Shown here: piece after piece, positions 4,102 to 25,525 of the stretch
How positions within the stretch are numbered: the stretch's first letter is position 1
How the letters are laid out: every line of letters begins with the position of its first letter
Sequence record: DRR723986_697
Strand: one strand, 5' to 3'
Length of the DNA: 30,008 nt
Program-made: the position numbers and the translations under genes
Notes under the pieces: generated by a model
What the model saw: only the letters and a program-made list of their open reading frames with translations
Databases searched by the model: none
Told to the model about the DNA's origin: nothing

Positions 4102-4806
4102 TTGAACCGACCCTCAGTCTGCGCCGCTCTGTCCCTCTCCATACTGCTGTGCGCGGGTATCGCTCCGCCTGCAACAGCGCAGTTGTCTGTCTACGACCCC
4201 GCAAACCATGCTCAGAACATTCTGCAAGCCGCGCGCGCCCTGCAGCAACTCGACCAGCAGGTCGAACAGCTGACCCATGAAATCGACATGCTTGAAAACA
4301 TGGCACGCGACCTTGAAACCTTTCCAACAGACCTCACCCGCGCGATCATTCAGGACCGCATCTCGCGCATCGAAATTCTTCTTCGCAAGGCAGAAGGGGT
4401 CGGCTACGAAATTGGTGAGGTCGAACGCAGATATAACGAGGCCTACCCCGAAACATATGGTGACACGCCGCCTTCTGCGTCTGCCCTCCTCAGAGACGCC
4501 CGCTCCCGCTGGGCACAATCGCGCACAGCGCACCGAGATGTTCTGCTCATGGTGGCGGAGACCACCGCAGCAAACCAGACCAATGCCGGGGCGCTGTCCG
4601 AGCTCGTTCGCGGAAGCCAGGAGGCTGCAGGTAATCTGCAGGCGCTTCAGGCAGGCAATCAGATCGGCGCGCTCTCAACCGAACAGCTGATCCGTATAGA
4701 AACCCTGATGGCAGCCCACTATCGCGCCCGGTCGCTTGATGAAGCCAGGCGTCTTGCTGAAGCCACCAGAGCGCGCGCACGCTTCAGAACCTTTCTGGAG
4801 AAGTGA
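4102..4806 (+). CDS. trbJ: P-type conjugative transfer protein TrbJ (VirB5-like)
   Basis: Signal peptide, VYDPANHAQN motif, GNLQALQAGNQ motif; position after trbE; SD AGGAGA before the TTG. Confidence 0.92.
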   Translation: MNRPSVCAALSLSILLCAGIAPPATAQLSVYDPANHAQNILQAARALQQLDQQVEQLTHEIDMLENMARDLETFPTDLTRAIIQDRISRIEILLRKAEGVGYEIGEVERRYNEAYPETYGDTPPSASALLRDARSRWAQSRTAHRDVLLMVAETTAANQTNAGALSELVRGSQEAAGNLQALQAGNQIGALSTEQLIRIETLMAAHYRARSLDEARRLAEATRARARFRTFLEK

Positions 4807-23532: not shown

Positions 23533-23616
23533 TTTGCTCCAATGCGCAATGCGCGACAACCAGACGGCCAGCCAAACACAGTGCGGCAAGCCATTTCAAC
23601 GGAGGCCCAGCCTGCC

Positions 23617-24198
23617 ATGAAACTGATGAATACATTCGGAAAAGCCATGGCGGCGCTGGCGATTGCCGGCCTGACCATCGTTCCCGTTGCCAGCGCCGAT
23701 CCTGACCGTGGACGCGACCGCGGCGGTTGGGACCGGGGTGATCGCGATCATGACCGTGGCCGTCACGGAAGTGGCGACCGGCATGATTACCGCCGTGGCG
23801 GACATGACTATCGCGGTGACTATCGTCGTGATCATCGCCGGTATGACTGGCATGACCGCCATGACTACCGTCGCGATTACCGCCACCCCAGCTATGCCTA
23901 CCGGTATCCGCCGGTCCGCCACTATGCCCCGCCGCCGCGCTATGGTTCCTACGCGACCTATGGCTACCGGACGGGTCCTTACTTCCGTTCGGGCTATATC
24001 TCGCCCTACCGGATTGGCGGTTATTACCGCCCGCACCCGCGCACGGTCTATATCCGCGATTACTCCCGTTACGGCCTGTATGCGCCACCGCCCGGATACT
24101 ACTGGGTTCATGACTATGATCGCGGCGATGCGATCCTGGCTTCGGTGGCAACAGGCGCAATCATTGGTCTTGTCGTCGGCGCACTCGCTTACGATTAA
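23617..24198 (+). CDS. RcnB-family secreted protein with an Asp/Arg/His/Gly-rich low-complexity region
   Basis: ATG 23617 after GGAGG; signal peptide ending ASA; C-terminal DYSRYGLYAPPPGYYWV..DAILASVATGAI typical of the RcnB domain. Confidence 0.85.
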   Translation: MKLMNTFGKAMAALAIAGLTIVPVASADPDRGRDRGGWDRGDRDHDRGRHGSGDRHDYRRGGHDYRGDYRRDHRRYDWHDRHDYRRDYRHPSYAYRYPPVRHYAPPPRYGSYATYGYRTGPYFRSGYISPYRIGGYYRPHPRTVYIRDYSRYGLYAPPPGYYWVHDYDRGDAILASVATGAIIGLVVGALAYD

Positions 24199-24230
24199 GG
24201 CTGATAGGGCGTCCTGCCCGCTTGGTGAAC

Positions 24231-24257
24231 GCCCGGATGTCTTCCCGGCATCCGGGC
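24231..24257 (+). terminator. GC-rich hairpin after the RcnB-like gene
   Basis: GCCCGGATGTC-ttccc-GGCATCCGGGC, 11-bp stem with one G-U pair; U-tract weak. Confidence 0.45.
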
Positions 24258-24312
24258 AATTCATGTTCATCACGCAAAATTGGGCGGAAAAGTCGCGTTC
24301 TTAACTTTTGCA

Positions 24313-24328
24313 TGGCGCAAATCATGCT
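24313..24328 (+). promoter_or_regulatory. Putative sigma54 (-24/-12) promoter
   Basis: TGGCGC-AAATC-ATGCT with exact GG-N10-GC spacing (consensus TGGCAC-N5-TTGCW). Confidence 0.55.
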
Positions 24329-24400
24329 TAACTCCGAGTCGTCCGGGATGGTCCCGGACAAGAAGTACGCGCCTGTTGCGCGCCTGAAAGGAGGTGATCC

Positions 24401-24481
24401 ATGTCGAGTGAGAAACCAGGTGAGGCCAAGTGGTCCAAATCCTACGGTATCTGGCTGGAGCAGCCTCCAGTCAGTGCCTAG
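24401..24481 (+). CDS. Unannotated 26-aa small ORF MSSEKPGEAKWSKSYGIWLEQPPVSA
   Basis: ATG immediately after GAAAGGAGGTGATCC (24386-24400); TAG at 24479-24481; flanked by its own promoter-like motif and terminator. Confidence 0.6.
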   Translation: MSSEKPGEAKWSKSYGIWLEQPPVSA

Positions 24482-24538
24482 AGATTTGTACCGGTAAGCT
24501 GAGACGCTGCCGGGACCATTGTCCTCAACGGACTCACG

Positions 24539-24571
24539 GGAGCCGCCCTCATCGGGGCGGCTTCTTTGATT
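24539..24571 (+). terminator. Intrinsic terminator closing the small-ORF unit
   Basis: GGAGCCGCCCT-catc-GGGGCGGCTTC followed by TTTGATT. Confidence 0.75.
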
Positions 24572-24676
24572 CTGGACGAGAATTAGCCGACGATGGCACT
24601 CAATACTGGCCGAAACGGGTTCGCGTGGGCGGGCAATTCGGCTATCTGGCTTCAAACGCACGAACGGAGACCCAGC

Positions 24677-25525
24677 ATGACCGTCCTCACCCACGCCGCA
24701 TCCGGATGGACCATCGGGGCAGGCAAGCCGCTTTCCGTGATCGCGGGCCTGAACGTGCTGGAAGACGAAGGCCTTGCCCTCGAAATCGGCACAGAGCTGA
24801 AGCGCGTCTGCGCCGCGCTCGGCCTGCCCTATGTGTTCAAGGCCAGCTTCGACAAGGCGAATCGCTCCTCGATCAAATCCTATCGCGGGCCCGGAATGGA
24901 ATCCGGACTGAAGACGCTGGCCAGCGTCAAAGCGAAACTGGGCGTGCCGATCTGCGCCGACCTGCATGAACCCGGCCAGGCCGAACCTGTCGCCGAGATC
25001 GTGGACATCGTCCAGATCCCGGCCTTCCTGTGCCGCCAGACCGATCTGGTCGTCGCCACCGCGAAAGCCACGGCCGCTACCGGTGGCATCATCCAGGTCA
25101 AGAAAGCCCAGTTCATCGCGCCGTGGGATACCAAGAACATCGTGTCCAAGATTGGCGAAGCGGCCGATGTCGGCGTGATCCTGTGTGAGCGCGGCTCCAG
25201 CTTCGGCTACAACAATCTCGTCGTCGACATGCTGGGCATTCCGGAAATGCAGAAGCTCGGCTGTCCGGTGACCATCGACGCGACCCACGCGGTTCAGCTT
25301 CCGGGCGCCGACCCGCGCACGGCGGGCGCTTCCACCGGCGGGCGCCGGGAAGGCGTGGCGATCATTGCCAAGGCAGCGATCGCCGCTGGCGCCGATGGCG
25401 TCTTCCTCGAATTCCATACCGATCCCGACAAGGCTCTGTGCGACGGGCCGAGCTGCCTGCCAATCACAGATGCTGAAGGCCTGCTGACGACGCTGAAGGC
25501 GTTGCACGAGGTGGTTGCCGCGTGA
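24677..25525 (+). CDS. kdsA: 3-deoxy-D-manno-octulosonate 8-phosphate synthase
   Basis: ATG 24677 after GGAGA; FKASFDKANRSS, QIPAFLCRQTDL, ERGSSFGYNNLVVDM, DATHAVQ and ALCDG motifs. Confidence 0.96.
   Translation: MTVLTHAASGWTIGAGKPLSVIAGLNVLEDEGLALEIGTELKRVCAALGLPYVFKASFDKANRSSIKSYRGPGMESGLKTLASVKAKLGVPICADLHEPGQAEPVAEIVDIVQIPAFLCRQTDLVVATAKATAATGGIIQVKKAQFIAPWDTKNIVSKIGEAADVGVILCERGSSFGYNNLVVDMLGIPEMQKLGCPVTIDATHAVQLPGADPRTAGASTGGRREGVAIIAKAAIAAGADGVFLEFHTDPDKALCDGPSCLPITDAEGLLTTLKALHEVVAA

Follow-up and report, generated by a model that had tools for sequence, protein, structure and literature searches.

Does a Shine-Dalgarno (SD) sequence complementary to the full tail of the 16S rRNA, set directly on the start codon of a tiny open reading frame (ORF), mark an undescribed genetic system or a branch of one already known? 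The question is raised by a stretch of 30,008 nucleotides (nt) from sequence record DRR723986_697 (hereafter the window, numbered from its first letter). A 16-mer in it, GAAAGGAGGTGATCCA (24386-24401, plus strand), is a perfect complement of the 16S rRNA 3' tail, and its final A is the A of the ATG that opens an ORF of 26 codons (24401-24481 with its stop, plus strand; product MSSEKPGEAKWSKSYGIWLEQPPVSA). A predicted intrinsic terminator follows on the same strand at 24538-24571, recognized by a terminator scan and by covariation, with a 12-base-pair (bp) stem containing eight G-C pairs (hairpin 24538-24565) and the T-rich tail TTGATTCT. The whole lies between a gene for an RcnB-like protein and kdsA, and motif, ORF and terminator were each recovered where the original prediction, made from the letters alone, had placed them. 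We favor the view that the element is a Hyphomonadaceae mini-mRNA of the published rre ("ribosome-regulated expression") class, in which the docking of the 30S subunit, the act of translation and the RNA fold probably outweigh the peptide.

The 16S complement and the rre class

The original prediction gave a match of the motif to the 16S tail over all 16 positions, and the 16S gene ends of four close relatives (G091, G026, G008 and G001) agree with it. In each of these genomes the 16-mer occurs exactly twice. One occurrence lies in a locus homologous to that of the window (identical to it at 98%, 96%, 95% and 77%, respectively), and the other is complementary to the 3' end of 16S, which reads ...CUGCGGC-UGGAUCACCUCCUUUC-UAAGG. 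The Rfam small-subunit rRNA model stops one base short of the final C of 16S, and whether the first G of the motif pairs, as we assume, depends on where the mature 3' end of the 16S rRNA lies. Identity to 16S ends after the 16 nt, and the flanks of the motif in the window (...GCGCGCCT-GAAAGGAGGTGATCCA-TGTCGAGTGAG...) differ from rRNA. Elsewhere in the window, counting both strands, exact matches to parts of the 16-mer reach 9 nt at most, with one over 9 nt (lacking GGAGG), six over 8 nt and 26 over 7 nt. The predicted duplex between the 16-mer and the 16S tail has an energy of -29.7 kcal/mol, compared with -9.2 for AGGAGG. Among 401 genomes sampled evenly from the class, the motif is present outside 16S in 40, as a single copy in 39 of these, versus 0/401 for a reversed control.

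Such a complement is the defining feature of the rre genes. The main text of Hahn et al. (2016, RNA Biol 14:1353, PMC5711450) describes these as small alphaproteobacterial mRNAs in which 16-17 nt complementary to the 16S 3' end reach the start codon, and which carry ORFs of 14 or 18 codons. Their rreB, from Bradyrhizobiaceae, is a 165-nt mRNA with a small ORF (sORF) of 14 codons and a perfect complementary region of 17 nt that takes in the opening base of its start codon, GTG. The rreB mRNA binds 30S subunits and co-sediments with them, an association requiring the three 5'-most nucleotides of the complementary region. It is weakly translated, the extended SD as well as the GTG being suppressive, and a change of GUG to UAG lengthens its half-life from 10 to 37 min. 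A 20-fold overexpression of ribosome-binding rreB leaves growth unaffected, ribosomes far outnumber the RNA, and simple titration of ribosomes is argued against by these authors. On the side of the peptides, synthetic RreB and RreR are reported to be unstructured and putative overproduction of RreB to have no growth phenotype, and both peptides are described as conserved inside their clades. Outside Bradyrhizobiaceae rreB does not keep its genomic context, and the function of the rre genes is called elusive (PMC5711450). A literature search on rreB and rreR returned nothing beyond this paper and three citing papers from the same group, and the papers that it found contain no explanation of rre function. 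The main text of PMC5711450 mentions none of CC2171, Rfam, Hyphomonas or Hyphomonadaceae; its supplements may list more taxa.

Because the rre hallmark is present, the element is not an undescribed system; the original prediction, which could assign it to no named family, had called it the best candidate in the window for one. It is a new and well-defined Hyphomonadaceae branch of the rre class, with a 26-codon ORF of the form MSSEKPG...EQP. With rreB and rreR it shares a perfect anti-16S stretch reaching the start codon, a tiny ORF whose product opens with MS, a short predicted transcript ending in a terminator, essentially single-copy occurrence and an alphaproteobacterial host, the closest loci sitting in Hyphomonas and Hyphomonadaceae records. 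It departs from them in the length of the ORF (26 codons, against 14 in rreB and 18 in rreR) and in an unrelated peptide. The start codon of the window branch is an ATG that overlaps the last base of the complement or lies one base later, whereas rreB and rreR start with GTG. The genus Hyphomonas has a longer 5' leader with two hairpins, unlike rreB and rreR; the consensus fold of the window branch leaves most of the SD unpaired, while the rreB prediction sequesters it; and the window branch is tied to an RcnB-like gene, which the rreB and rreR branches are not.

The correspondence to a characterized family, which the original prediction had named as grounds for its own refutation, is one of kind and falls short of the Rfam threshold. 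Against RF01867, the Rfam family for the small RNA (sRNA) CC2171 of Caulobacter, the window scores 18.3 bits (E 0.06-0.2; gathering score 75), in an alignment that covers only the first ~24 positions and the terminator. These first 24 nt match the RF01867 consensus, which begins cAAcaAucGAAAGGAGGUGAUCCAGUGUCUCAU, its start ..GAAAGGAGGUGAUCCAGUGUCUCAU.. being the same 16-mer together with a start codon. The model is also similar to the window RNA in size (159 positions), and pairs CAUuGuC in codons 3-5 with GaCaAUG just before the terminator, analogous to the helix P1 described below. At its gathering threshold it catches four of five loci whose ORFs begin with MSHC (L039, L049, L074 and L023, not L015) and none of 13 others, namely three of rreR type, two of rreB type, two of Hyphomonas type and six other MSS loci. 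CC2171 therefore carries the rre hallmark. Rfam files CC2171 as a non-coding sRNA, whereas the window element has a conserved sORF. CC2171 has been validated by Northern blot in Methylorubrum extorquens (bioRxiv 10.1101/2022.01.24.477521); nowhere does the main text of that preprint use "Shine-Dalgarno", "16S" or "sORF", and it speaks of a "small ORF" for a different RNA only. In the Rfam 15 paper CC2171 is named only in a table of structure improvements obtained with R-scape. The other sub-threshold Rfam matches to 23900-24900 and 24300-24600, RcsR1 (19.4 bits), sucA-II (18.4), BSnc119 and mir-1803, were uninformative and were set aside.

The breadth of the class emerges when a single genome of each species is scanned for copies of the motif that lack the standard 16S continuation; at least 120 loci were returned, and the counts that follow are among the matches listed. 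Twenty-five variant rRNA-end matches fall in 24 loci, and 96 loci are non-rRNA. Of the latter, 84 carry an ORF that begins at +15 or +16 (at +15 in the window) and spans 12-35 codons, and the products of 80 of these 84 open with MS. The start codon is GTG at 68 loci, ATG at 22 and TTG at one. Clusters of ORF length lie at 14, 18, 21-27 and 26 codons, and the hosts are almost all Alphaproteobacteria. The most numerous ORF type is MSHC... with 43 loci; there follow MSRxxLExGVGT with 18 codons (14 loci), MSxxKRCHLAGIAR with 14 codons (seven loci, L017 counted), the window type MSSEKPG... with 26 codons (seven loci) and other MSS... ORFs (10 loci). The published 14-codon rreB and 18-codon rreR types are thus both present, and the peptides of the different branches are unrelated although their 16-mer is identical.

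A few records at the margins of this set stand apart. The main text of PMC5711450 reports rre genes in Alphaproteobacteria only. In the set made up of L016, L071, L010, L038 and L050, records labeled Woeseiaceae or Gammaproteobacteria have the 16-mer, a 26-codon ORF and the P1 partner CUCAC before the terminator. The same set includes a Gemmatimonadetes metagenome-assembled genome (MAG) with the 16-mer and a tiny ORF, as well as two Burkholderiales or Bordetella MAGs with MRD... ORFs of 24-26 codons, MAG labels being possibly unreliable. In two Azospirillum-like records (L055 and L085) the motif precedes an ORF of 59-60 codons with a signal-peptide-like N-terminus (MSHGA..VVAA.FGLA), the longest of the class among the matches listed; the rre gene of Azospirillum treated in the main text of PMC5711450 is plasmid-borne and has an ATG start.

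Reading frame and RNA fold in the Hyphomonadaceae branch

Of 151 genomes drawn from the family to which Hyphomonas oceanitis belongs, 101 matched the locus in a BLASTN search with positions 24300-24600 (E <= 1e-4). This conservation argues in favor of a selected RNA of about 230 nt containing an sORF, as originally proposed. From 30 returned loci and 40 further regions, among which L187 and L196 lack the motif, we read 76 rows with the motif and 72 complete ORFs, 65 of them distinct. Left out of the 72 are L154 (where a split gene is represented by its 5' half), a copy in L180 with 35 codons, L003 (a copy of MSHC type) and L056 (cut by a contig end). Seventy of the 76 rows share an identical 16-mer, and the remaining six have a single C-to-U change that retains a G-U pair (GATTCA or GATCTA).

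Every one of the 72 complete ORFs starts with ATG and is 26 codons long. Among the 65 distinct ORFs the stop at codon 27 is TAG in 35, TGA in 17 and TAA in 13. The ORF frame contains no premature stop in any of them, whereas stops break frame +1 in 28 and frame +2 in every one of the 65; the family alignment is free of indels in the ORF, while the 3' untranslated region (UTR) has many. Hence, from the uninterrupted frame and the lack of indels within it, an open frame of fixed length with a fixed end is under selection.

The amino acid sequence itself appears from the codon data to be selected at most weakly. MSSEKPG and EQP are conserved in the branch peptide, and we conclude that several of these "conserved residues" probably reflect constraints on the RNA. 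The codons AGT (3), GAG (4) and CCT (22) occur in 65/65 distinct ORFs with no synonymous variant, and the conserved residues are fixed as the nucleotides AGT, GAG, AAA and CCT, without any AGC, GAA, AAG or CCN variants; the codon of Ser2 does vary (TCG 43, TCA 18, TCT 3), as does that of Gln21. The ratio of nonsynonymous to synonymous proportions (pN/pS, by the Nei-Gojobori method over codons 2-26) is 0.62, 0.67 and 0.71 in the frame of the ORF for pairs that are <10%, 10-20% and 20-35% divergent, and 0.71-1.11 in the other two frames. Variability by codon position is flat, at 1.00, 1.08 and 1.14 bits, with no three-base periodicity. The 26-residue peptide has no match to a Pfam or NCBIfam family at E up to 1, and the exact peptide of the window was not found in a collection of 15 billion proteins. 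Of the hydrophilic micropeptide first proposed, the sORF stands and a functional peptide finds little support, given a pN/pS near that of the other frames and residues fixed at the level of nucleotides.

The fold was predicted with RNAalifold from an alignment of the genus, A1 (21 sequences kept out of 28 once near-duplicates were removed), and one of the family, A2 (42 sequences; three without a terminator were dropped for folding), and the two give one common core fold. In the consensus folds the 16-mer is largely unpaired and contains only a 3-bp GGA/UCC stem. The core is formed by two helices, seen in both alignments, that join the ORF to the 3' UTR. P1 pairs GUGAG of codons 3-4 (24408-24412) with CUCAC directly before the terminator (24533-24537). 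P2 pairs UGGUCC of codons 11-12 (24431-24436) with GGACCA of the 3' UTR (24513-24518), and six of its seven pairs show two-sided changes across the 42 family sequences, as do seven of the 12 pairs of the terminator helix in A2. A local hairpin in codons 19-23, CUGGAG-CAGC-CUCCAG (24455-24470, A2), sets an SD-like GGAG against an anti-SD-like CCUCC; its codons are GAG in 64 and CCT in all 65 of the 65 distinct ORFs, and by eye a GGAGCANCCUYC motif stands before the stop in the MSS-type loci L005, L009, L016, L026, L084 and L104. Upstream of the 16-mer, A1 yields two further hairpins, which like all these elements lie on the plus strand. Hairpin 1, GUCCGGG-AUGGU-CCCGGAC (24341-24359), has a conserved GGAUGGUCC loop region, and its pairs 55-71 and 58-68 keep pairing through two-sided changes in 6 and 8 of the 21 sequences. 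Hairpin 2, CGCGC-CUGUU-GCGCG (24368-24382), ends 3 nt before the 16-mer and has five pairs, the middle one being U-A in 18 sequences and C-G in three; the terminator scan also flagged it as a minus-strand terminator-like site.

In A2 the share of paired cells is 92.0% and drops to 37-51% if the partners are slid; the covariation score of 0.336 drops likewise to 0.05-0.14. On four of five measures the observed values are reached by 0/500 shuffles, and on the fifth, the number of pairs with two-sided changes, by 1/500. These contrasts are inflated because the fold was derived from the same sequences, and P1, whose strand GUGAG is invariant in 42/42 rows of A2 as is CTCACG, was therefore tested outside the family on 11 MSS-type loci. 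Two of them (L016 and L071) keep GUGAG/CUCAC, and L026 places GUGGG opposite CUCAC, giving a G-U pair. The helix covaries as GUGAU/AUCAC in L084 and L104 and as GUGG/CCAC in L009, while L041 has GUG..UUUC opposite GAAACAC and L005 pairs four of the five positions. No P1 partner was found in L120 and L021 among these 11 loci, and L010 is cut by a contig end.

Other branches carry different candidate partners for the SD. Near the 3' end, ~130-145 nt beyond the motif, the rreR-type loci L001, L007 and L051 have CACCUCCU, which is almost a copy of the 16S anti-SD, and rreB-type RNAs carry GUCACCUC within the ORF. In view of these motifs the branches may mask the SD differently, that of the window leaving it largely unpaired. 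For the rreR-like and MSHC-like groups quick MAFFT alignments gave a poor RNAalifold consensus, in which only GACAAUG and CACCUCCU are visible.

Transcription and genomic neighborhood

The gene upstream of the element (23542-24198) encodes a protein with a signal peptide, a long low-complexity stretch rich in R, D, H and Y, and an RcnB domain at residues 167-208 (PF11776, 38 bits); 3' of it lies a second terminator-like hairpin at 24231-24257. The downstream gene encodes KdsA (NF003543, 374 bits). Among the matches listed, an RcnB-like gene on the same strand precedes the SD by 133-202 nt at 6/7 window-type loci, and such a gene occurs at 0/88 other non-rRNA loci. By tblastn it is present at 48/71 family loci, many of which have only 400-nt flanks, and kdsA follows the element in 25/71. 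The main text of PMC5711450 does not mention a pairing of an RcnB-like gene with an rre gene.

A scan of 24100-24750 for the sigma-70 consensus found no promoter. In A1, a block of invariant or nearly invariant columns, TTAACTT ... GGCGCAAATCATGCTTA, lies at ~24301-24331 on the plus strand and looks promoter-like from its conservation. Thus, of the promoter-like motif noted at the outset, a block conserved in the genus remains and a sigma-70 match does not. A reading of TGGCGC-N5-ATGCT (24313-24328) as a sigma-54 site was dropped because the first G of its GG, judged by eye, varies in 4/21 genus sequences. Contigs from four RNA libraries of four studies cover 24100-24392, 24130-24455, 24100-24387 and 24100-24430, with pieces reaching 24547 and none on 24556-24651. 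Contigs cannot show the starts, ends or levels of transcripts or whether these are single, and the breaks at ~24387-24392 fall in a stretch shared by many species, the loose ends there belonging to the copies of other species. Therefore we take the element only to be present in RNA libraries. Of the autonomous transcription unit in the original prediction, the terminator is predicted and covarying; a transcription of its own is placed in doubt by the RcnB-like gene directly upstream and by contigs that bridge from this gene into the element, and the two may be co-transcribed or functionally tied.

Three family loci show rearrangements at the rre gene. At L180 (G077:C46:15479-19006) the whole gene of ~240 nt is duplicated, the copies being 95-96% identical and 2682 nt apart; they flank an IS3-type transposase with rve domains and a 350-residue ORF without a match, and the ORF of one copy has 35 codons instead of 26. 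At L205 (G123:C63:43300-48200) the gene is split between positions 435 and 4594 by a 4.1-kb insert, flanked by 32-nt direct repeats (91% identical) that hold the SD and the first codons. The insert contains inner 28-nt direct repeats (TTTCTGGGAAACCACTGGGAAACGAAAT) at 577-604 and 4419-4446 and, on the opposite strand, two reverse-transcriptase genes matching Drt3a (312 bits) and Drt3b (586 bits) of type 3 defense-associated reverse transcriptase (DRT) systems. The same split recurs at L206 (G115:C48:12500-16500) with a 3.2-kb insert that has the CTGGGAAAC repeat motif of L205 near both ends and other cargo, namely ORFs of 169 and 329 residues that match nothing in Pfam or PADLOC. Neither the insert of L205 nor that of L206 showed an integrase. 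Because these two loci share the split and differ in cargo, the 5' region of the rre gene may be an insertion hotspot for variable cassettes.

Competing explanations and a possible mode of action

By analogy with rreB, a free 30S subunit would dock very tightly on the 16-mer, with the exposed GAAA(G) end as the likely docking seed. P1, which starts 7 nt after the A of the AUG, could then hinder accommodation of the start codon and make translation inefficient. An occasional round of translation through the 26 codons would unzip P1 and P2, exposing the 3' part to decay and setting the lifetime of the RNA, and the GGAG/CCUC hairpin could serve as a second SD/anti-SD module or as a protein site. 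What would be selected in such a scheme is the contact of the 30S subunit with the RNA, the presence and length of the ORF and the RNA fold, and much less the sequence of the peptide.

In attenuator-type leader peptides, too, it is the translation of a short ORF and not its product that remodels the RNA. Set beside these leaders as a matter of general knowledge, the window element is similar in its short ORF of constrained position and length, its overlapping helices and its weak peptide selection. It is unlike them in having no evident regulatory codon run and in its hallmark, the full-tail anti-16S sequence. Unlike such leaders, it also controls no downstream cistron, because the terminator follows directly.

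Several observations weigh against the scheme just set out. Binding of the 30S subunit, weak translation and start-codon-dependent decay would all be carried over from rreB, whose predicted fold differs from that of the window branch in sequestering the SD. The window ORF starts with ATG and not with the GTG that helps to hold rreB translation low. The span of ~230 nt is a prediction, and the contigs run from the RcnB-like gene into it. Folding of the window as a single sequence leaves the GGAGG core paired in part, the probability of its being unpaired ranging over 0.0-0.6 with the assumed 5' end, and the support for P1 within the family is the joint invariance of its strands only. Finally, Ala9 and Val13 each run through all four synonymous codons, and pN/pS is slightly lower in frame than out of frame, which is compatible with some peptide-level selection.

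These last points bear on the alternative of an ordinary small-protein gene, in which the effector would be the 26-residue peptide and the extended SD would do no more than tune its expression. The open frame of constant length in 72/72 copies and the conserved MSSEKPG and EQP would fit it, as would the conservation ascribed to RreB and RreR within their clades. The conserved residues are nucleotide-locked, however, three-base periodicity is lacking, the peptide has no family match, and across the rre branches unrelated peptides follow an identical 16-mer; with the unstructured synthetic RreB and RreR, and the putative overproduction of RreB that has no growth phenotype, this leaves a peptide effector unlikely. 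At the other extreme the ORF would be incidental and the RNA non-coding, a decoy titrating 30S subunits or a sponge for anti-SD-like (CCUCC) sRNAs. Its strong predicted duplex, conserved secondary structure and the listing of the related CC2171 as an sRNA would be consistent with this. Yet frame, length and stop position are preserved perfectly while indels abound in the 3' UTR, variation at codon 27 is confined to the three stop codons, and the half-life of rreB depends on its start codon, and we regard a purely non-coding role as improbable. Tight binding to the 30S subunit, one half of the decoy idea, is published for the class member rreB, but a simple decoy is argued against by the unaffected growth on 20-fold rreB overexpression and the excess of ribosomes over the RNA.

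The remaining alternatives concern the locus rather than the RNA. The element could be derived from the 3' UTR of the RcnB-like gene or regulate that gene, or it could be the leader of kdsA. The RcnB-like gene is tied to the window type, both among the matches listed and by tblastn at the family loci, and contigs from four studies run from it into the element. Between gene and element, however, lie the hairpin at 24231-24257 and the promoter-like block, the other rre branches have no RcnB-like neighbor, the context of rreB is not conserved outside Bradyrhizobiaceae, and contigs cannot show single transcripts; as for kdsA, it is next in only 25/71 family loci and is preceded by a strong terminator. 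A cis-acting element of either kind is hence very improbable. The resemblance of the minus-strand 16-mer to the 16S 3' end suggested a match by chance or a stray piece of an opposite-strand rRNA operon, and both are refuted by the conservation data: the identity stops after 16 nt between differing flanks, the locus recurs in 101/151 family genomes with 26 codons in 72/72 complete copies, and the motif is found in 40/401 genomes of the class against 0/401 for the reversed control.

For an rre-class mini-mRNA in which docking, translation and fold count for more than the peptide, the present comparisons add to the published picture that the length of the ORF is conserved much more clearly than the peptide sequence, that the ORF is folded on the 3' UTR through covarying helices, that the "sRNA" CC2171 of Rfam has the rre hallmark, and that in Hyphomonadaceae there is a conserved partner gene. 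These points narrow the experiments by which the function of the rre genes might be found.

The 16-mer is identical across several alphaproteobacterial orders and always stands before a tiny ORF, which implies a ribosome-directed function. We raise, as a tentative and rather speculative extension, the idea that the rre RNAs, including CC2171 and the 26-codon branch, are one class-wide riboregulator that caps the whole free 3' tail of 16S rRNA on the 30S subunit, the peptide being irrelevant and the fixed-length ORF a ribosome-driven timer that unzips P1 and P2 for release or decay. If this were true, the tethered 30S subunit might even hold on during translation, a "captive" ribosome from which the mRNA loops out. 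In that case the RNA would monitor free 30S subunits and the intactness of the 16S 3' end, or protect them, a role that in Hyphomonadaceae would be linked to the RcnB-like envelope gene upstream.

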